Positions 1 to 10,377 of a stretch of 10,377 nt of DNA are shown here, one piece after another (position 1 is the stretch's first letter; each line of letters begins with the position of its first letter). Origin of the DNA: a virus (taxonomy: Duplodnaviria; Heunggongvirae; Uroviricota; Caudoviricetes); the IMG/VR virus record IMGVR_UViG_2690316246_000004; one strand, written 5' to 3'. The notes under the pieces were generated by a model. It was not told the DNA's origin. It made no database searches and saw only the letters and a list, made by a program, of their open reading frames with translations. Made by a program: the position numbers and the translations under genes.

Positions 1-372
1 GAAGGAGTGTCCGTTAAACTCAGGCTACCTCAGTCTGCTGATTTGAGTCGCTACAGTGGCACGGTGGTTAACCGTCCGACGTTTTTTGCTTTTGCAAAAG
101 GCGCGGGTGTGATGGGGGAAGCGGGACCTGAAGCCATTCTGCCACTGCGTCGCGGTGCTGATGGTAAGCTGGGGGGTGTGGCGGATACTGGTGGTTCAGG
201 CATGGTGATGTTTGCCCCGCAGTACAACATTGAGATCAATAACGATGGCACGAACGGGCAGATAGGTCCGGCTGCCCTGAAGGTGGTTTATGACCTCGGG
301 AAAAAAGCGGCCGCGGACTTTATGCAACAGCAGGCCCGTGATGGTGGCCGGTTAAGTGGAGCATACCGGTAA
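1..372 (+). CDS. H: Tail tape-measure protein (lambda gpH-like), C-terminal fragment; 5' end lies outside the window
   Basis: Open frame from the window edge to TAA at 370-372, whose last base is the first base of the M start codon (TAATG). Position immediately upstream of M/L/K/I/J matches lambda gene order. Identity is from synteny and recalled similarity, not a search. Confidence 0.8.
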   Translation, partial: EGVSVKLRLPQSADLSRYSGTVVNRPTFFAFAKGAGVMGEAGPEAILPLRRGADGKLGGVADTGGSGMVMFAPQYNIEINNDGTNGQIGPAALKVVYDLGKKAAADFMQQQARDGGRLSGAYR

Positions 373-701
373 TGGAGACGTTTCACTGGAAAGTGCGCCC
401 GGATATGAATGTGGTATCAGAGCCGAAAGTGGTGACAGTGAAGCTGGGCGATGGTTATGAACAGCGTCGTGCGGCGGGACTGAATAACCAGTTGTCGACT
501 TACAGCGTGAAGATACGTGTTCGTAAAGGTGAACACCCATTTTTAAAAGCCTTTCTGGAACGGCACGGTGGCGTCCGCGCATTTCAGTGGACGCCACCTT
601 ATGACTGGAAGCCGATCAGGGTGGTTTGTCGTAAATGGTCGGCAAGCGTGGGGGCGTTGTGGGTAACCATAACGGCAGATTTTGAACAGGTCGTGGCATA
701 G
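372..701 (+). CDS. M: Minor tail protein M (lambda gpM-like), 109 aa
   Basis: ATG at 372 overlapping the H stop; length equals lambda gpM; sits between H and L as in lambda. Confidence 0.9.
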   Translation: METFHWKVRPDMNVVSEPKVVTVKLGDGYEQRRAAGLNNQLSTYSVKIRVRKGEHPFLKAFLERHGGVRAFQWTPPYDWKPIRVVCRKWSASVGALWVTITADFEQVVA

Positions 702-710
702 GAGGCTCTG

Positions 711-1409
711 ATGCAGGATATTCCACAGGAAACACATCATGAGACGACACGCCTCACTCAGTCAGCCCAGGTGGTGCTCTGGGAAATCGATCTGACAGAG
801 GTCGGTGGTGAACGTTATTTTTTCTGTAATGAGCAGAACGAAAAAGGTGAGCCGGTTACCTGGCAGGGGCGGCAGTATCAGGCATACCCCATTCAGGGGA
901 CGGGATTTGAACTGAACGGCAAGGGCAGTGCTGCCCGTCCGACACTGACGGTTTCTAACCTGCACGGAATGGTCACCGGGATGGCGGAAGACCTGCAGAG
1001 TCTGGTCGGCGGAACGGTGGTCAGGCGTAAGGTTTACGCCCGTTTTCTGGATGCGGTGAACTTCGTCAACGGAAACAGCGACGCCGATCCGGAACAGGAG
1101 GTGATCAGCCGCTGGCGCATCGAGCAGTGCAGCGAACTGAGCGCGGTCAGTGCCTCTTTTGTGCTGGCCACACCAACGGAGACGGATGGCGCGGTTTTCC
1201 CGGGGCGTATCATGCTGGCGAATACCTGTATGTGGACTTACCGTTCTGATGAGTGTGGTTACACGGGCAGGGCAGTGGCTGACGAGTTCGACAAACCAAC
1301 GACGGATATCCGGAAGGACAAATGCAGCAAGTGTATGCGCGGGTGTGAGTTGCGCAACAATACCGGTAATTTCGGCGGTTTCCTTTCCATCAATAAACTT
1401 TCTCAGTAA
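711..1409 (+). CDS. L: Minor tail protein L (lambda gpL-like), 232 aa, with C-terminal cysteine cluster
   Basis: GGAGG at 701-705 precedes ATG 711. Length equals lambda gpL. C-terminal motif C-x8-C...C-x2-C-x3-C (nt ~1227-1346) fits the Fe-S cluster-binding gpL family. Confidence 0.92.
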   Translation: MQDIPQETHHETTRLTQSAQVVLWEIDLTEVGGERYFFCNEQNEKGEPVTWQGRQYQAYPIQGTGFELNGKGSAARPTLTVSNLHGMVTGMAEDLQSLVGGTVVRRKVYARFLDAVNFVNGNSDADPEQEVISRWRIEQCSELSAVSASFVLATPTETDGAVFPGRIMLANTCMWTYRSDECGYTGRAVADEFDKPTTDIRKDKCSKCMRGCELRNNTGNFGGFLSINKLSQ

Positions 1410-1413
1410 ATCC

Positions 1414-2157
1414 ATGACACAGACAGAATCAGCGATTCTGGCGCACGCCCGGCGATGTGCGCCAGCGGAGTCGTGTGGCTTCGTGGTAAGAACGCCGGAG
1501 GGAGACAGGTATCTTCCCAGCGAGAATATCTCCGGTGAGCCGGAGGAACGGTTCCGGATGGCTCCGGAGGACTGGCTGCGGGCACAAATGCAGGGTGAGA
1601 TTGTGGCGCTGGTCCACAGTCATCCCGGTGGTCTGCCCTGGCTGAGTGAGGCTGACCGGCGGCTGCAGGTGCAGAGTGATTTGCCGTGGTGGCTGGTCTG
1701 CCGGGGGGCGATTCACAAGTTCCGCTGTGTGCCACATCTTACCGGGCGGCGCTTTGAGCACGGGGTGACGGACTGTTACACGCTGTTCCGGGATGCTTAT
1801 CATCTGGCAGGGATTGAGATGCCGGATTTTCATCGCGGGGATGACTGGTGGCGTAACGGTCAGAATCTCTATCTTGACAATATGGAGGTGACGGGTTTTT
1901 ACCGTGTCGCACTGACAGAGGCACAGCCGGGCGATGTGCTGCTGTGCTGTTTTGGTTCATCGGTGCCGAATCATGCCGCCATTTACTGCGGTGACGGCGG
2001 GCTGCTGCACCATATTCCTGAACAACTGAGCAAACGAGAGAGGTACACCGACAAATGGCAGCGACGCACACACTCCCTCTGGCGTCACCGGGCATGGCGC
2101 GCATCTGCCTTTACGGGGATTTACAACGATTTGGTCGCCGCATCGACCTTCGTGTGA
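1414..2157 (+). CDS. K: Tail tip assembly protein K (allele 1), 247 aa, JAB/MPN (JAMM) plus NlpC/P60 domains
   Basis: ATG 1414 lies 4 nt after the L stop. JAMM motif H-S-H-x7-S-x2-D (HSHPGGLPWLSEAD) at nt 1615-1656. NlpC/P60-like Cys (GVTDCYTLF, nt ~1774) and His (VPNHAAIY). The C-terminal 199 aa correspond to lambda K as I recall its classical annotation. Confidence 0.9.
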   Translation: MTQTESAILAHARRCAPAESCGFVVRTPEGDRYLPSENISGEPEERFRMAPEDWLRAQMQGEIVALVHSHPGGLPWLSEADRRLQVQSDLPWWLVCRGAIHKFRCVPHLTGRRFEHGVTDCYTLFRDAYHLAGIEMPDFHRGDDWWRNGQNLYLDNMEVTGFYRVALTEAQPGDVLLCCFGSSVPNHAAIYCGDGGLLHHIPEQLSKRERYTDKWQRRTHSLWRHRAWRASAFTGIYNDLVAASTFV

Positions 2158-2242
2158 AAACGGGGGCTGAAGCCATCCGGGCACTGGCCACACAGCTCCC
2201 GGCGTTTCGTCAGAAACTGAGTGACGGCTGGTATCAGGTGCG
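2055..2242 (+). CDS. I: Tail assembly protein I, 5' fragment (62 codons), cut off by the N-run
   Basis: Starts MAATHTLPLASPGMARICLYGDL..., identical to the starts of the complete I copies at 2822 and 4395. Overlaps the K 3' end out of frame, as in lambda. Ends at the gap. Confidence 0.75.
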
Positions 2243-2253
2243 NNNNNNNNNNN
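2243..2253. other. Run of 11 N (scaffold gap / unresolved join)
   Basis: Ns in the sequence. The flanks are discontinuous: I codon 62 upstream, mid-K downstream. Confidence 0.99.
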
Positions 2254-2924
2254 TAAGAACGCCGGAGGGGGAAAGATATTTCCCCTGCGTGAATATCTCC
2301 GGTGAGCCGGAGGCGTATTTCCGTATGTCGCCGGAAGACTGGCTGCAGGCAGAGATGCAGGGTGAGATTGTGGCGCTGGTCCACAGTCATCCCGGTGGTC
2401 TGCCCTGGCTGAGTGAGGCCGACCGGCGGCTGCAGGTGCAGAGTGATTTGCCGTGGTGGCTGGTCTGCCGGGGGGCGATTCACAAGTTCCGCTGTGTGCC
2501 ACATCTTACCGGGCGGCGCTTTGAGCACGGGGTGACGGACTGTTACACGCTGTTCCGGGATGCTTACCATCTGGCGGGGATTGAGATGCCGGATTTTCAT
2601 CGTGAGGATGACTGGTGGCGTCACGGTCAGAATCTCTATCTGGATAATCTGGAGGCCACAGGGCTGTATCAGGTGCCGTTGTCAGCGGCGCAGCCGGGCG
2701 ATGTGCTGCTGTGCTGTTTTGGTTCATCGGTGCCGAATCATGCCGCCATTTACTGTGGTGACGGCGAGCTGCTGCACCATATTCCTGAACAACTGAGCAA
2801 ACGAGAGAGGTATACCGACAAATGGCAGCGACGCACACACTCCCTCTGGCGTCACCGGGCATGGCGCGCATCTGCCTTTACGGGGATTTACAACGATTTG
2901 GTCGCCGCATCGACCTTCGTGTGA
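2254..2924 (+). CDS. K: Tail tip assembly protein K (allele 2), 5'-truncated at the gap
   Basis: Resumes at the position equivalent to nt ~1487 of K allele 1 (RTPEGERYFPCVNISGEPEAYFRMSPEDW...). Contains the same JAMM and NlpC/P60 motifs. TGA at 2922-2924. Confidence 0.8.
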
Positions 2925-3463
2925 AAACGGGGGCTGAAGCCATCCGGGCACTGGCCACACAGCTCCCGGCGTTTCGTCAGAAACTGAGTGACGGCTGGTA
3001 TCAGGTGCGCATTGCCGGGCGTGATGCAGGTGAAACCGAATTGTCTGCCCGTCTTAATGAGCCGCTGGCAAATGGTGCAGTGATCCACATAGTACCGCGT
3101 CTGGTGGGAGCTAAAAGTGGCGGTGTGTTTCAGGCGGTGCTGGGGGCGGCTGTTATGGCGGTTGCTATATGGATGCCGGGGGTAGGAATTATGGCGAGTA
3201 ATCTGCTGTTTTCTCTCGGTGCCAGTATGACGCTTGGCGGTGTTGCACAGATGCTGGCACCGAAAGCCAGAACTCCCCGTACACAGACAACGGATAACGG
3301 TAAGCAGAACACGTATTTCTCGTCACTGGATAACATGGTTGCCCAGGGCAATGTTCTGCCCGTTCTGTACGGTGAAATGCGCGTGGGGTCACGTGTGGTT
3401 TCTCAGGAGATCAGCACGGCAGACGAAGGGGATGGTGGTCAGGTTGTGGTGATTGGTCGCTGA
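2822..3463 (+). CDS. I: Tail assembly protein I (allele 2), 213 aa, ubiquitin-like N-domain ending in Gly-Gly
   Basis: Complete ORF overlapping the K 3' end by 103 nt out of frame. Diglycine at residues 100-101 (nt 3119-3124). Glycine-rich hydrophobic middle; C-terminus GEMRVGSRVVSQEISTADEGDGGQVVVIGR is shared with the allele-3 copy. Confidence 0.88.
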   Translation: MAATHTLPLASPGMARICLYGDLQRFGRRIDLRVKTGAEAIRALATQLPAFRQKLSDGWYQVRIAGRDAGETELSARLNEPLANGAVIHIVPRLVGAKSGGVFQAVLGAAVMAVAIWMPGVGIMASNLLFSLGASMTLGGVAQMLAPKARTPRTQTTDNGKQNTYFSSLDNMVAQGNVLPVLYGEMRVGSRVVSQEISTADEGDGGQVVVIGR

Positions 3464-3481
3464 TGCAAAATGTTTTATGTG

Positions 3482-3510
3482 AAACCGCCTGCGGGCGGTT
3501 TTGTCGTTTA
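3482..3510 (+). terminator. Stem-loop with U-rich tail in the I-J intergenic region (candidate weak terminator or RNA-stability hairpin)
   Basis: aaaccgcc-tgcg-ggcggttt is a perfect 8-bp stem, followed by tgtcgttt. Lies 14 nt upstream of the J start. Confidence 0.35.
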
Positions 3511-3523
3511 TGGAGCGTGAGGA

Positions 3524-3880
3524 ATGGGTAAAGGCAGCAGTAAGGGGCATACCCCGCGCGAAGCGAAGGACAACCTGAAATCCACGCAGTTGCTGAGTGT
3601 GATTGATGCCATCAGCGAAGGGCCGGTTGACGGTCCGGTGGATGGATTAAAAAGCGTGCTGCTGAACGGTACGCCGGTCCTGGACAGCGAGGGGAAGACA
3701 AACTTTTCCGGTGTTACGGTGGTGTTCCGTGCAGGTGAGCAGGAGCAGACACCGCCGGAGGGTTTTGAATCCTCCGGCTCCGAGACGGTGCTGGGTACGG
3801 AAGTGAAATATGACACGCCGATCACCCGGACCATCACGTCGGCAAACATCGACCGTCTGCGCCTGACCTTCGGTGTGCAG
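3524..3880 (+). CDS. J: Host specificity / central tail fibre protein J, 5' fragment (119 codons), cut off by a single N
   Basis: MGKGSSKGHTPREAKDNLKSTQLLSVIDAISEGPV... matches the J start seen again at 5127. Bases 3632-3880 are identical to 5927-6175. Confidence 0.8.
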
Positions 3881-3881
3881 N
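3881..3881. other. Single N marking a discontinuity (J 5' region joins directly to mid-K)
   Basis: N in the sequence. Upstream is J codon 119; downstream is K at the position equivalent to nt 2309. Confidence 0.95.
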
Positions 3882-4497
3882 GGAGGCGTATTTCCGTATG
3901 TCGCCGGAAGACTGGCTGCAGGCAGAGATGCAGGGTGAGATTGTGGCACTGGTCCACAGCCACCCCGGTGGTCTGCCCTGGCTGAGTGAGGCCGACCGGC
4001 GGCTGCAGGTGCAGAGTGATTTGCCGTGGTGGCTGGTCTGCCGGGGGGCGATTCACAAGTTCCGCTGTGTGCCACATCTTACCGGGCGGCGCTTTGAGCA
4101 CGGGGTGACGGACTGTTACACGCTGTTCCGGGATGCTTACCATCTGGCGGGGATTGAGATGCCGGATTTTCATCGTGAGGATGACTGGTGGCGTCACGGT
4201 CAGAATCTCTATCTGGATAATCTGGAGGCCACAGGGCTGTATCAGGTGCCGTTGTCAGCGGCGCAGCCGGGCGATGTGCTGCTGTGCTGTTTTGGTTCAT
4301 CGGTGCCGAATCATGCCGCCATTTACTGTGGTGACGGCGAGCTGCTGCACCATATTCCTGAACAACTGAGCAAACGAGAGAGGTATACCGACAAATGGCA
4401 GCGACGCACACACTCCCTCTGGCGTCACCGGGCATGGCACGCATCTGCCTTTACGGGGATTTGCAACGATTTGGCCGCCGCATCGACCTTCGTGTGA
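3882..4497 (+). CDS. K: Tail tip assembly protein K (allele 3), 5'-truncated at the N
   Basis: Same frame and motifs as allele 2, with synonymous nucleotide differences and a divergent C-terminus (WHASAFTGICNDLAAASTFV). The ORF-track start at 3898 is an internal Met. Confidence 0.8.
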
Positions 4498-5066
4498 AAA
4501 CGGGTGCCGAAGCCATCCGGGCGATGGCCACACAGCTCCCTGCGTTTCGTCAGAAGCTGAGCGACGGCTGGTATCAGGTGCGTATTGCCGGGCAGGATGT
4601 TAGCACGTCCGGATTAACGGCACAGTTACATGAGGCTCTGCCTGACGGCGCTGTGATTCATATTGTTCCCAGAGTCGCCGGGGCCAAGTCAGGTGGTGTA
4701 TTCCAGATTGTCCTGGGAGCAGCCGCCATTGCCGGATCATTCTTTACCGCCGGAGCCACCCTTGCAGCATGGGGGGCTGCCATTGGTGCCGGTGGTATGA
4801 CCGGCATTCTGTTTTCTCTCGGTGCCAGTATGGTGCTCGGCGGTGTGGCTCAGATGCTGGCACCGAAAGCCAGAACTCCCCGCACACAGACAACGGATAA
4901 CGGTAAGCAGAACACCTATTTCTCCTCACTGGATAACATGGTTGCCCAGGGCAATGTTATGCCTGTTCTGTATGGTGAAATGCGCGTGGGGTCACGTGTG
5001 GTATCTCAGGAGATCAGCACGGCAGACGAAGGGGACGGTGGTCAGGTTGTGGTGATTGGTCGCTGA
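4395..5066 (+). CDS. I: Tail assembly protein I (allele 3), 223 aa
   Basis: Complete ORF, same length as lambda gpI, overlapping K by 103 nt. Differs from allele 2 by a 10-residue indel in the glycine-rich hydrophobic segment. Confidence 0.9.
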   Translation: MAATHTLPLASPGMARICLYGDLQRFGRRIDLRVKTGAEAIRAMATQLPAFRQKLSDGWYQVRIAGQDVSTSGLTAQLHEALPDGAVIHIVPRVAGAKSGGVFQIVLGAAAIAGSFFTAGATLAAWGAAIGAGGMTGILFSLGASMVLGGVAQMLAPKARTPRTQTTDNGKQNTYFSSLDNMVAQGNVMPVLYGEMRVGSRVVSQEISTADEGDGGQVVVIGR

Positions 5067-5126
5067 TGCAAAATGTTTTATGTGAAATCGCCTCCGGGCG
5101 GTTTTATCGTTTATGGAGCATGACGA

Positions 5127-5915
5127 ATGGGTAAAGGCAGCAGTAAGGGGCATACCCCGCGCGAAGCGAAGGACAACCTGAAGTCCACGCAGCTGCTGAG
5201 TGTGATCGATGCCATCAGCGAAGGGCCGGTTGAAGGTCCGGTGGATGGATTAAAAAGCGTGCTGCTGAACAGTACGCCGGTGCTGGACAGTGAGGGGAAT
5301 ACCAACATCTCCGGCGTCACGGTGGTGTTCCGGGCAGGTGAGCAGGAGCAGTCACCGCCGGAGGGATTTGAATCCTCCGGCTCCGAGACGGTGCTGGGTA
5401 CGGAAGTGAAATATGACACGCCGATCACCCGGACCATCACGTCGGCAAACATTGACCGACTGCGTTTTACCTTCGGTGTACAGGCACTGGTGGAAACCAC
5501 CTCAAAGGGAGACAGGAATCCGTCTGAAGTTCGCCTGCTGGTTCAGATACAGCGTAACGGTGGCTGGGTGACGGAAAAAGACATCACCATTAAGGGCAAA
5601 ACCACTTCGCAGTATCTGGCCTCGGTGGTGGTGGGTAACCTGCCGCCGCGCCCGTTTAATATCCGGATGCGCAGGATGACACCGGACAGCACCACAGACC
5701 AGCTGCAGAACAAAACGCTCTGGTCGTCGTACACCGAAATCATCGATGTGAAACAGTGCTACCCGAACACGGCACTGGTCGGCGTACAGGTGGATTCGGA
5801 GCAGTTCGGCAGCCAGCAGGTGAGCCGTAATTATCATCTTCGCGGGCGCATTCTGCAGGTGCCGTCGAACTATAACCCGCAGACGCGGCAATACAGCGGT
5901 ATCTGGGACGGAACG
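5127..5915 (+). CDS. J: Host specificity protein J (allele 3), 5' fragment (263 codons), cut off by the N-run
   Basis: Same start as 3524, with substitutions ([17 protein letters not shown] versus [17 protein letters not shown]). Ends at the gap at a position equivalent to nt 6605 of the downstream J. Confidence 0.85.
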
Positions 5916-5926
5916 NNNNNNNNNNN
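5916..5926. other. Run of 11 N (scaffold gap / unresolved join)
   Basis: Ns in the sequence. Upstream is J codon 263; downstream restarts at J codon ~37. Confidence 0.99.
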
Positions 5927-8900
5927 GGTCCGGTGGATGGATTAAAAAGCGTGCTGCTGAACGGTACGCCGGTCCTGGACAGCGAGGGGAAGACAAACTT
6001 TTCCGGTGTTACGGTGGTGTTCCGTGCAGGTGAGCAGGAGCAGACACCGCCGGAGGGTTTTGAATCCTCCGGCTCCGAGACGGTGCTGGGTACGGAAGTG
6101 AAATATGACACGCCGATCACCCGGACCATCACGTCGGCAAACATCGACCGTCTGCGCCTGACCTTCGGTGTGCAGGCACTGGTGGAAACCACCTCAAAGG
6201 GTGACCGGAATCCGTCGGAAGTCCGCCTGCTGGTTCAGATACAGCGTAACGGTGGCTGGGTGACGGAAAAAGACATCACCATTAAGGGCAAAACCACTTC
6301 GCAGTATCTGGCCTCGGTGGTGGTGGGTAACCTGCCGCCGCGCCCGTTTAATATCCGGATGCGCAGGATGACACCGGACAGCACCACAGACCAGCTGCAG
6401 AACAAAACGCTCTGGTCGTCGTACACCGAAATCATCGATGTGAAACAGTGCTACCCGAACACGGCGCTGGTCGGCGTGCAGGTGGATTCAGAGCAGTTCG
6501 GTAACCAGCAGGTGAGTCGCAATTATCATCTTCGCGGGCGCATTCTGCAGGTGCCGTCGAACTATAACCCGCAGACGCGGCAATACAGCGGTATCTGGGA
6601 CGGAACGCTTAAGCCAGCATACAGCAACAACATGGCCTGGTGTCTGTGGGACATGCTCACTCATCCGCGCTACGGCATGGGGAAACGTCTTGGTGCGGCA
6701 GATGTGGACAAATGGGCGCTGTATGTCATCGGCCAGTACTGCGACCAGTCAGTGACGGACGGATTTGGCGGCACGGAGCCGCGCATCACCTGTAACTCTT
6801 ACCTGACCACACAGCGTAAGGCGTGGGATGTTCTCAGTGATTTCTGCTCGGCGATGCGCTGTATGCCGGTATGGAACGGACAGATGCTGACGTTCGTGCA
6901 GGACCGACCGTCGGATAAGGTGTGGACCTATAACCGCAGTAATGTGGTGATGCCGGACGATGGCGCGCCGTTCCGCTACAGCTTCAGCGCCCTGAAGGAC
7001 CGCCATAATGCCGTTGAGGTGAACTGGATTGACCCGGATAACGGCTGGGAGACGGCGACAGAGCTTGTGGAGGATACGCAGGCCATTGCCCGTTACGGTC
7101 GTAATGTCACGAAGATGGATGCCTTTGGCTGTACCAGCCGGGGGCAGGCACACCGCGCCGGGCTGTGGCTGATTAAAACGGAACTGCTGGAAACGCAGAC
7201 CGTGGACTTCAGCGTGGGCGCAGAAGGGCTTCGCCATGTACCGGGTGATGTCATTGAAATCTGCGATGATGATTATGCCGGTATCAGCACCGGTGGTCGC
7301 GTACTGGCGGTGAACAGCCAGACCCGGACGCTGACGCTCGACCGTGAAATCACGCTGCCGTCCTCCGGTACCACGCTGATAAGCCTGGTTGACGGAAGTG
7401 GCAATCCGGTCAGCGTGGAGGTCCAGTCCGTCACCGACGGCGTGAAGGTGAAAGTGAGCCGGGTTCCTGACGGCGTTGCAGAATACAGCGTGTGGGGGCT
7501 GAAGCTGCCGACGCTGCACCAGCGATTGTTCCGCTGCGTGAGTATCCGTGAGAACGACGACGGCACGTATGCCATCACCGCCGTGCAGCATGTGCCGGAA
7601 AAAGAGGCCATCGTGGATAACGGGGCACACTTTGACGGTGACCGGCGCGGCACGGTGAATGGTGTCACGCCGCCAGCGGTGCAGCACCTGACTGCCGAAG
7701 TCACCGCAGACAGCGGGGAATATCAGGTGCTGGCGCGATGGGACACGCCGAAGGTGGTGAAGGGTGTGAGCTTCCTGCTTCGCCTGACCGTGGCAGCGGA
7801 CGACGGCAGTGAGCGGCTGGTCAGCACAGCCAGGACGACGGAAACCACATACCGCTTCAGGCAGCTGGCGCTGGGGAATTACAGTCTGACAGTCCGGGCG
7901 GTAAATGCCCGGGGGCAGCAGGGCGATCCGGCGTCGGTATCGTTCCGGATTGCCGCACCGGCAGCGCTGTCGCGGATTGAGCTGACGCCGGGCTATTTTC
8001 AGATAACCGCCACGCCGCATCTTGCGGTTTATGATCCGACGGTACAGTTTGAGTTCTGGTTCTCGGAAAAGCGGATTGCGGATATCAGGCAGGTTGAAAC
8101 CACAGCACGCTATCTTGGCACGGCGCTGTACTGGATAGCCGCCAGTATCAATATCAGGCCGGGCCATGATTATTATTTTTACGTTCGCAGTGTGAACACC
8201 GTTGGCAAATCGGCATTTGTGGAGGCCATCGGTCGGGCGAGCGATGATGCAGAAGGTTATCTGAATTTTTATAAAGGGTTGATCAATAAAACGCATCTCG
8301 GCAAGGAGTTGTGGACGCAGATTGATAACGGTCAGCTTGCGCCGGACCTGACTGAAATCAGGACGTCCATTACGAATGTCAGCAATGAAATCACGCAAAC
8401 CGTCAATAAAAAACTGGAAAATCAGAGTGCTGCAATCCAGCAGATACAGAAAGTTCAGGTTGATACAAATAATAACCTGAACAGCATGTGGGCTGTGAAG
8501 CTGCAACAGATGAAGGACGGACGCCTTTATATTGCGGGTATCGGTGCCGGTATTGAGAATACGCCAGCAGGAATGCAGAGTCAGGTGCTGCTGGCGGCAG
8601 ACAGGATTGCGATGATTAATCCTGCGAATGGCAACACAAAGCCGATGTTTGTTGGTCAGGGCGATCAGATATTCATGAACGACGTGTTCCTGAAATGCCT
8701 GACGGCTCCGACCATTACCAGCGGCGGTAATCCTCCGGCATTTTCCCTGACACCTGGCGGACGGCTGACGGCGAAAAATGCCGATATCAGCGGTAACGTG
8801 AACGCGAACTCCGGGACGCTCAACAACGTCACGATTAATAAGAACTGTCGGGTTCTGGGAAAATTGTCCGCGAACCAGATTGAAGGCGATCTCGTTAAAA

Positions 8901-9298
8901 CAGTGGGCAAACCTTTCCCACGGGACTCCCGGGCACCGGAGAGGTGGCCATCAGGGACCATTACCGTCAGGGTTTATGACGATCAGCCGTTTGATCGGCA
9001 AATTGTTATTCCCGCGGTGGCGTTTCGCGGTGCTAAACATGAGCGGAAGAATAACAATATTTATTCGTCATGCCGCCTGATAGTGAAGAAAAACGGTGCT
9101 GAAATTTATAACCGAACGACCCTGGATAATACGCTGATATATACGGGTGTTATTGATATGCCTGCCGGTCACGGTCACATGACGCTGGAGTTTTCTGTAT
9201 CGGCATGGCTGGTAAATGGCTGGTATCCCACAGCAAGTATCAGCGATTTGCTGGTTGTGGTGATGAAGAAAGCCACTGCAGGCATCACGATTAGCTGA
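5927..9298 (+). CDS. J: Host specificity / central tail fibre protein J, 5'-truncated by the gap (codon ~37 to stop); lambda-like C-terminal receptor-binding region
   Basis: Continuous 1123-codon frame. First 249 nt identical to 3632-3880. C-terminus ...[44 protein letters not shown] closely resembles my recollection of the lambda gpJ C-terminus (LamB-binding domain). The ORF-track start at 5933 is a GTG inside the protein. Confidence 0.9.
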
Positions 9299-9317
9299 AT
9301 TTTATAACCCAGATACG

Positions 9318-9343
9318 GGCACCAGAAATGGTGCCTTTTTTAT
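9318..9343 (+). terminator. Rho-independent terminator downstream of J
   Basis: ggcacc-agaaat-ggtgcc stem-loop followed by TTTTTTATT, about 20 nt after the J stop. Confidence 0.6.
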
Positions 9344-9365
9344 TGCAGAAAAGCGAGAGGTAATT

Positions 9366-9965
9366 ATGCGTAAAGTTTGTGCAGCCATTTTGTCCGCAGC
9401 CATTTGCCTGGCCGTATCCGGTGCGCCTGCATGGGCGTCTGAACATCAGTCCACGCTGAGCGCCGGGTATCTTCAGACCCATACTGATATGCCAGGCAGC
9501 GATGACCTGAAGGGCATTAACGTGAAATACCGTTATGAGTTTACGGACACGCTGGGGCTGATTACGTCATTCAGTTATGCCAACGCTGAAGATGAGCAAA
9601 AAACGCATTACAGCGATACCCGCTGGCATGAGGATTCCGTGCGTAACCGCTGGTTCAGCGTGATGGCGGGGCCGTCTGTGCGCGTGAATGAATGGTTCAG
9701 CGCGTATGCGATGGCGGGCGTGGCTTACAGCCGTGTGTCGACCTTCTCCGGGGATTATCTCCGCGTAACTGACAACAAGGGGAAAACGCACGATGTGCTG
9801 ACCGGAAGTGATGGCGGTCGCCACAGCAACACGTCTCTGGCGTGGGGGGCTGGCGTGCAGTTTAACCCGACCGAATCCGTGGCCATTGACCTTGCTTATG
9901 AAGGTTCCGGCAGTGGTGACTGGCGCACTGACGGTTTCATCGTGGGTGTCGGTTATAAGTTCTGA
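9366..9965 (+). CDS. lom: Lom outer-membrane protein (Ail/Lom/OmpX beta-barrel family), 199 aa
   Basis: GAGAGG RBS before ATG 9366. Signal-peptide-like N-terminus (MRKVCAAILSAAICLAVSGAPAWA, then SEHQ). Alternating beta-strand pattern; C-terminus GVGYKF ends in Phe, typical of outer-membrane beta-barrels. Position after J as in lambda. Confidence 0.9.
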   Translation: MRKVCAAILSAAICLAVSGAPAWASEHQSTLSAGYLQTHTDMPGSDDLKGINVKYRYEFTDTLGLITSFSYANAEDEQKTHYSDTRWHEDSVRNRWFSVMAGPSVRVNEWFSAYAMAGVAYSRVSTFSGDYLRVTDNKGKTHDVLTGSDGGRHSNTSLAWGAGVQFNPTESVAIDLAYEGSGSGDWRTDGFIVGVGYKF

Positions 9966-9992
9966 TTAGCCAGGTAACACAGTGTTATGACT

Positions 9993-10017
9993 GCCCGCTG
10001 GTTCAGGCGGGCTTTTT
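9993..10017 (+). terminator. Rho-independent terminator downstream of lom
   Basis: gcccgc-tggttcag-gcgggc stem followed by TTTTT; located between the lom stop and the stf start. Confidence 0.55.
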
Positions 10018-10028
10018 GTGGGGTGAAT

Positions 10029-10355
10029 ATGGCAGTAAAGATTTCAGGTGTACTGAAAGATGGGGCGGGTAAACCTGTCGTAAATTGTGCGATTGAACTG
10101 CGGGCCAGAAGAACCAGTCCGACCGTTGTGGCACACGTTGTTGCCACTTGCGTGACGGACAATAACGGTGCTTATGTGATTGAGGCTGAGCCGGGGTATT
10201 ACGAGGTTGCGCTTCACTGTAACGGCTGGCAGCCAACCCGTGTCGGGGATATTGATGTGGCACCGACTGATGCACCGGGGACACTGAACGCGTTTCTGAA
10301 TGCACCAAAGGATGGTGATTTACGTCCGGAGGTGATGAAGTGTCAGCGCCAGTGA
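10029..10355 (+). CDS. stf: Side tail fibre protein N-terminal domain homologue (lambda Stf-like), 108-aa ORF
   Basis: MAVKISGVLKDG... matches the lambda Stf N-terminus as recalled. The ORF stops at TGA 10353-10355, and the other two frames also stop within about 10 nt. I prefer ATG 10029 over the upstream ATG 9987, which lies inside the terminator stem. Confidence 0.6.
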   Translation: MAVKISGVLKDGAGKPVVNCAIELRARRTSPTVVAHVVATCVTDNNGAYVIEAEPGYYEVALHCNGWQPTRVGDIDVAPTDAPGTLNAFLNAPKDGDLRPEVMKCQRQ

Positions 10356-10377
10356 TATAAGACGGTAATTCGCCATT

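Follow-up and report, generated by a model that had tools for sequence, protein, structure and literature searches.

The window, a stretch of 10,377 nucleotides from the IMG/VR virus record IMGVR_UViG_2690316246_000004, is composed of four contigs (A to D) that are separated by N runs (Table 1), and the segment borders drawn by an earlier note on this DNA coincide with these N runs. All four contigs cover overlapping stretches of one lambda-type tail module (H'-M-L-K-I-J-lom-stf'). Contig A matches the Pfam families Phage_min_tail, Phage_tail_L and Prok-JAB plus NLPC_P60, and its counterparts in finished genomes are annotated as tape measure, minor tail L, C40 peptidase and tail assembly protein. 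Contig B matches Lambda_tail_I, and contig D matches FNIII-A_GpJ, Phage-tail_3, Ig_J, Phage_Tail_Tip, Ig_GpJ_C, Ail_Lom and phage_tail_N. The assignments of M, L, K (JAB and NlpC/P60), I, J, Lom and the Stf N-terminus all lie above the Pfam gathering cut-offs; the H fragment has no Pfam match and is named from finished-genome annotation. The canonical order is kept in each contig and in the merged sequence of B and D: the start of I lies within the 3' end of K, and J comes after I. When the overlaps between the contigs are taken into account, both the gene order and every domain family agree with those of the tail-tip region of phage lambda and lambdoid phages (M-L-K-I-J, lom, stf).

Table 1. 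Contigs, gaps, shared tracts and insertion-element ends in the window
Feature	Coordinates	Strand	Description
IS600-type (IS3 family) terminal ~32 bp	1..32	.	Inserted in tape-measure gene; left scaffold end
Contig A	1..2242	+	H 3' end 7-372, M 372-701, L 711-1409, complete K allele A 1414-2157, first 62 codons of I 2055-2242
A tail / B overlap	2047..2242	+	196 bp identical to B 2814-3009; second possible join, A into B
Scaffold gap A/B	2243..2253	.	11 N; sequence restarts 756 bp back in gene K
Contig B	2254..3880	+	K allele B from codon ~25 2254-2924, I allele B 2822-3463 (213 aa), first 119 codons of J 3524-3880
B tail / D head overlap	3632..3880	+	Identical to 5927-6175 (249/249)
Scaffold gap B/C	3881..3881	.	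Single N; restart in mid-K, C 3882 corresponding to B 2309
Contig C	3882..5915	+	Partial K allele C 3882-4497, I allele C 4395-5066 (223 aa), first 263 codons of J 5127-5915
Scaffold gap C/D	5916..5926	.	11 N; restart 681 bp back in J
Contig D	5927..10377	+	J codon 37 to stop 5927-9298, lom 9366-9965, stf 5' part 9987-10340
IS21-family terminal 37 bp	10341..10377	.	Truncates stf; right scaffold end

In contrast to the lambda tail-tip module, the module in the window is degraded, with H cut by an IS600 end and stf by an IS21-family end. On the left, contig A is matched by finished genomes only from base 30-31 onward. A 59-mer of this end, extended from a related locus (L098, described below), finds 100% matches in 3169 of 5426 E. 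coli genomes, at up to 43 places per genome, and one of the records places it just beyond a broken transposase ORF amid IS600 and IS30 fragments. From the context of this fragment nest, we infer that the left-end element is IS600. On the right, the finished-genome match to the merged B and D sequence stops at window position 10340, and the stf frame runs into IS sequence beyond this base. The corresponding 53-mer, also extended from L098, has 100% matches in many records, mostly plasmids, and is located about 50 bp upstream of the istA start in the IS21-like element of pCFSAN029787_01.

After each N run, the sequence jumps back into genes that have already been covered, by 756, about 1570 and 681 bp at the A/B, B/C and C/D junctions, respectively. 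The window thereby contains three K alleles and two alleles of I and of the 5' part of J. In phage genomes, by contrast, K-I-J was found at 272 places in 266 records, almost always once per record. Therefore, the window represents pieces of several phage segments rather than one. The lengths of the overlaps (249, 196 and 87 bp), of the gaps (11, 1 and 11 N) and of the IS ends (32 and 37 bp) yield no consistent k-mer or read-length signature, and an attempt to deduce the assembler from them was abandoned on this ground.

Contig C carries a distinct, lambda/434-like allele. It is 90% identical to contig B, with indels in I, and positions 5235-5915 are 95.7% identical to D 5927-6607. The differences that the earlier note had listed between B and C are all present: 3 of 204 aligned K residues differ in addition to further synonymous changes, 6 of the 119 N-terminal J residues are substituted, and the I proteins differ by a net 10 residues (213 versus 223 amino acids), with a divergent middle. 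Contig C is 96.4% identical to phage 434 and 96.2% to a lambda variant (96.2-96.5% across phage 434 and lambda variants), and 99.4-99.7% identical to the IMG/VR loci L109, L121, L111, L120, L114 and L106. In these loci, which come from other isolates, the allele belongs to a different tail module, whose M-L region is about 86% identical to A and whose J is about 93.5% identical to D. The proposal that C derives from a separate, closely related prophage is thus borne out with respect to the distinct allele and its different module elsewhere, and the two alleles probably belong to co-resident prophages.

The earlier note had further proposed that B and D can be merged into one continuous locus through an identical overlap. 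The identity of 3632-3880 and 5927-6175 is exact and ends at both contig ends so that it cannot be extended, and the middle copy (5235-5483) differs from each 249-mer at 18 positions. A perfect match of 249 bp cannot be a chance similarity between unrelated DNA. However, different alleles in the window also share perfect tracts of similar length (475 bp for B/C, 242 bp for C/D and 196 bp for A/B), and the 249-bp identity alone is thus no proof that B and D come from one molecule; we rejected it as the sole argument for a single locus. Merged B and D align without a gap and in one piece, at 97.9% across 5790 bp, to a locus of the finished E. coli genome NZ_CP065615.1 in which H-M-L-K-I-J-lom-stf each occur once, and the merge restores an uninterrupted J of 3480 nt, which equals the length of the annotated gpJ in that genome. 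Four independent IMG/VR contigs contain the exact 249-mer. In all four, the preceding 600 bp equal B, and the 600 bp downstream agree with D at 600/600 positions in L054 and L098 and at 586/600 in L096; L054 and L098, which are independent contigs, span the B/D join without a break. In relatives, each contig end is followed by the bases that stand at the homologous position in the neighbouring contig: the last 25 bases of B are followed by GCACTG, as in D 6176-6181, in 32 of 32 loci that carry them, and the last 25 bases of A by CATTGC, as in B 3010-3015, in 31 of 31 fetched loci.

Which K allele is connected to this J? Contig A supplies a third one, as A 1487-2242 differs from B 2254-3009 at 47 positions in 756 bp (93.8% identity). 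Neither this allele nor the 196-bp identity of A to B appears in the earlier note. L098 (IMGVR_UViG_2675903357_000001), a 7358-bp single contig from another draft genome, matches A at 100% over 2242 bp, continues with B 3010-3880 without a mismatch and then follows D at 99.2%, and its tail locus is bounded by the same IS600 and IS21 junctions as the window ends. Unlike the window, L098 is uninterrupted and has one K-I-J, without the 5' allele of B and without the C allele. Because L098 runs from A through the 3' part of B into D between the same IS ends, the real locus here most likely consists of A, B 3010-3880 and D, in the order IS600, H-M-L-K(A)-I-J-lom-stf (with H and stf truncated), IS21. 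The K allele physically joined to D would then be that of A. The merge of B and D accordingly stands with respect to collinearity, the intact J and the flanks of the 249-mer, but L098 joins A's K rather than B's K to D, and no relative was found that joins the K region of B to D. The locus that owns D is at least that of A and may also be that of B. Contig D is 99.2% identical to both L098 and L054. Its differences from L098 comprise 32 base changes and two 1-bp indels, and because most of them cluster in a single patch between 7954 and 8107, two copies could be blended in D itself.

We propose that the window is a mis-chained scaffold from an E. coli/Shigella-type draft genome with several lambda-type prophages or prophage remnants, and we consider it very probable that the tandem layout is an artefact. 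In such a short-read draft assembly, the tail-tip genes K, I and J would be present in at least three closely related mosaic copies. Reads could not have been threaded through these copies, which would leave four partial contigs, and the scaffolder would then have chained A, B, C and D via N runs despite their coverage of the same genes. B 2254-2813 would represent the K gene of a second copy that is identical to the first from 2814 on, and C would represent the 5' K-I-J segment from a third copy of lambda/434 type; contig C and the 5' part of B thus probably stem from further prophage copies. Fragmentation of short-read assemblies by homologous lambdoid prophages is described in the literature for O157:H7 and other E. 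coli (PMC7175801, PMC10925052). The window resembles this known fragmentation in that the structural genes are ~90-98% identical and the breaks lie inside them and at IS ends, but it differs from the usual outcome because the allelic contigs are chained head to tail in one scaffold and mimic a tandem repeat. The IMG/VR scaffolds L047, L105, L107 and L119 also contain tail-gene alleles chained through Ns. The closest complete E. coli genomes are 97.9% (B and D), 97.6% (C) and 97.3% (A) identical, and none is closer.

We infer that the copies were co-resident in one genome. Alternatively, the alleles could stem from different cells, through a mixed or contaminated culture or a multi-strain E. 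coli bin in which strain variants of one prophage locus were merged. Three of the six inner contig ends (the 3' ends of A and C and the 5' end of D) adjoin allele-variable sites, as would be expected in a bubble-rich graph. Nevertheless, divergence of 4-10% with indels is usual between different prophages but not between strain variants of a single one, and in finished single-strain E. coli genomes the median number of K-I-J loci is already 3, with a maximum of 14. Related IMG/VR scaffolds, whose isolate status is presumed from their identifiers, also share the pattern, and we regard a mixture of cells as improbable. Somewhat less probable still is an origin from only two copies, of A type and C type, in which case contig B would be an assembly chimera that passes from one to the other where their sequences are identical. 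Within B 2309-3009 (701 bp), all 52 variable sites equal A or C and none is private to B; they form four alternating blocks (C-like, A-like, C-like and A-like), and the last switch falls in a 52-bp tract common to A, B and C that a small-k de Bruijn graph could cross. However, two of the switches flank a 16-bp A-like block, and the shared tracts in which they fall measure only 20 and 29 bp; no A-type or C-type read would hold this combination, and the usual k-mer sizes would not switch there. A 101-mer over the first switch (through 2375) is exact in three IMG/VR contigs, and a 100-mer over the last switch is found in 96 metagenome contigs; thus, both junction combinations exist in nature. B 2254-2308, moreover, differs from A at seven sites. 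The short switch tracts and the occurrence of both tested junctions in independent contigs led us to judge a chimeric origin of B unlikely.

A genuine tandem, partly overlapping K-I-J' triplication in one prophage, with the Ns as masked or uncalled bases, would account for the direct arrangement of the copies in the same orientation, and a second scaffold, L047, shows a B-like and then a C-like order. However, all three junctions between the repeat copies coincide with N runs and none lies in called sequence. Such a triplication would fuse J codon 119 to mid-K and J codon 263 to J codon 37, producing truncated genes. Among 223 fetched related loci (1.85 Mb), the three junctions are absent except in L047, where the junction is also an N, and the best matches in finished genomes each align in one piece without gaps. 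In addition, the B/C-type join of L047 is displaced relative to that of the window, with its J-side contig extending 20 bp further and its K-side contig starting 12 bp earlier. Because this junction lies at other bases, it was not inherited. We therefore reject a real tandem duplication, which is the most improbable of these readings by far, and retain the mis-chained scaffold as the explanation of the layout.

Any ORF called across an N run (for example, 2055-2924, 3524-3985 and 5127-5945) is artefactual, and tail-gene counts, tandem-repeat calls and prophage boundaries drawn from this scaffold would be wrong. The practical value of the observation concerns data quality: given the allele chains in L047, L105, L107 and L119, users of IMG/VR should expect chimeric 'viral genomes' among its entries. 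The underlying biology is ordinary, as E. coli/Shigella genomes are well known to hold several mosaic lambdoid tail modules.

The patchwork in the K gene of contig B could, in principle, record recent gene conversion between tail modules co-resident in this genome. We regard this reading as doubtful; if it is true, the isolate would be a snapshot of ongoing prophage-prophage recombination. Among public sequences, none exceeds 98.4% identity to B over its full length, and B is 94.8% identical to PhiR49_1 and 94.5% identical to mEp332.

What does the apparent repeat structure of this scaffold represent? In a self-comparison of the window, the sequence past each N run steps back into genes that have already been covered: A 1487-2242 aligns with B 2254-3009 at 93.8% identity (47 mismatches), B 2309-3880 with C 3882-5483 at about 90% with indels, and C 5235-5915 with D 5927-6607 at 95.7% (29 mismatches). 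All junctions between copies are N runs, and these junctions would truncate J and K. Across 223 related loci totalling 1.85 Mb, the only one with such a junction is L047, an IMG/VR locus whose junction also contains N and whose contig ends are displaced by 20 and 12 bp relative to the window. Moreover, K-I-J is almost always single in phage genomes (272 places in 266 records), and in finished E. coli genomes the median number of such places is three, with a maximum of 14. N-joined chains of tail-gene alleles also occur in the IMG/VR scaffolds L105, L107 and L119, and published work names homologous lambdoid prophages as the chief reason why short-read assemblies of E. coli are fragmented (PMC7175801, PMC10925052). 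Thus, the apparent repeats are an artefact of scaffolding, and the genes beneath them are lambdoid tail genes of an ordinary and well-known multi-copy kind. The mechanically listed ORFs 2055-2924, 3524-3985 and 5127-5945, which cross the N gaps, are artefactual fusions of pieces of different contigs. Single-N joins of overlapping allelic tail-gene copies are found in the IMG/VR entries L047, L105, L107 and L119 (three in L119), and chimeric scaffolds of this kind recur in the database. One single N is also present in the IMG/VR locus L115.

Features of the scaffold, in window coordinates
Feature	Position	Remarks
Contig A	1-2242	
Contig B	2254-3880	
Contig C	3882-5915	
Contig D	5927-10377	
N run, A/B border	2243-2253	11 N
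N run, B/C border	3881	1 N
N run, C/D border	5916-5926	11 N
IS terminus, left	1-32	multi-copy element, putatively IS600-type (IS3 family); interrupts tape-measure gene H
M	372-701	Pfam
L	711-1409	Pfam
K (in A)	1414-2157	Pfam JAB + NlpC/P60
I (in B)	2822-3463	Pfam
I (in C)	4395-5066	Pfam
J (in D)	5927-9298	Pfam, full domain set
Lom	9366-9965	Pfam
Side tail fibre, N-terminal domain	9987 onward	Pfam
IS terminus, right	10341-10377	last 37 bases, IS21-family; truncates stf

The earlier note had proposed that B and D constitute one locus and that C is the allele of another prophage, an interpretation that is supported in part. The overlap on which it relied is exact, with 0 mismatches over the 249 bases of 3632-3880 (B tail) and 5927-6175 (D head), each of which differs from C 5235-5483 at 18 positions. 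The differences that it described between B and C were likewise recovered in K (3 of 204 residues, along with synonymous substitutions), I (213 aa in B versus 223 aa in C) and J (6 of 119 N-terminal residues). However, the overlap alone is no proof of a join because tracts of perfect identity also link different alleles in the window, over 475 bp (B/C), 242 bp (C/D) and 196 bp (A/B). The join is nevertheless biologically sensible, given that the merged B+D sequence (5829 bp) forms a single ungapped alignment at 97.9% identity to the finished E. coli genome NZ_CP065615.1 and restores an open J frame of 3480 nt, the length of gpJ in that genome. The exact 249-mer was found in four IMG/VR contigs, where the upstream 600 bp matches B in 4/4 and the downstream 600 bp matches D in L054 and L098 (600/600). 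Furthermore, the last 25 bases of B continue into the next bases of D in all 32 loci that carry them, and the B-like contig of L047 extends 20 bp beyond the end of B with bases identical to D 6176-6195.

The locus containing D most likely includes A. The complete K of A differs from that of B at 47/756 bases and is therefore a third allele, which the earlier note overlooked; its region 1487-2242 is 93.1% identical to C. The last 196 bp of A (2047-2242) match B 2814-3009 without mismatch, and B 2254-2813 is the K of another copy that is identical from 2814 on. In L098 (IMGVR_UViG_2675903357_000001), an unbroken contig of 7358 bp that comes from a different draft genome, A is matched at 100% over 2242 bp, B 3010-3880 is mismatch-free and D is 99.2% identical, and these segments are contiguous between the same IS junctions, both window ends recurring as ends of L098. 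The IS-bounded locus is thus most likely A + B(3010-3880) + D, in which we infer the K allele joined to D. In L098, L096 and L028, it is an A-type K that runs on into the I-J region of B and D, and the K region of B was not found joined to D in any relative. About 24 of 32 base differences and two 1-bp indels between D and L098/L054 lie within a ~150-bp J patch (7954-8107), which may reflect either genuine recombination or two J copies that were blended during assembly.

Contig C is a lambda/434-like allele, with identities of 96.4% to phage 434 and 96.2% to one lambda variant, and is 99.4-99.7% identical to six IMG/VR loci (L109, L121, L111, L120, L114 and L106). The C-type allele is embedded there in a different module, with M-L ~86% identical to A and J ~93.5% identical to D, which supports its assignment to a separate prophage.

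For contig B, the best reading is a real allele with the mosaic make-up that is usual in lambdoid phages. Over 2309-3009, all 52 variable sites match A or C, with no private variants, in the order C-like, A-like (2375-2390), C-like and A-like (from 2866); such alternation is what recombination or gene conversion between lambdoid tail modules leaves behind. It is unlikely that B is an assembly chimera, since two switch tracts span just 20 and 29 bp, 3 IMG/VR contigs contain a 101-mer across the first switch and 96 metagenome contigs contain a 100-mer across the last. The nearest phages to B are PhiR49_1 (94.8%) and mEp332 (94.5%).

Both scaffold ends are insertion-sequence termini, one interrupting H and the other cutting stf down to a 122-aa ORF that runs on into the IS. 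This marks the tail module as the degraded remnant of a prophage, in a host that is rich in IS and possibly Shigella/EIEC-like. The best matches to the window are E. coli strains, in one of which ipaH adjoins the prophage. Judging from sequence, the host would be E. coli or a Shigella/EIEC-like organism, the latter fitting a scaffold bounded by IS at its ends. We infer that the copies are co-resident in one genome, and their copy numbers likewise.

In finished E. coli, the annotated order, present once per locus, is tape measure, tail protein, L, C40 peptidase, tail assembly protein, gpJ, Lom and tail fibre. The G+C content falls from ~0.60 to ~0.48 in the distal third of J (8001-8750), where the tail-tip fibre region precedes the receptor-binding domain, and a second time near the J-lom junction (9001-9500), which suggests an evolutionary origin other than that of the remaining J. 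By eye only, GC-rich hairpins with T runs after I (3466-3520), J (9300-9350) and lom (9968-9985) look like intrinsic terminators.
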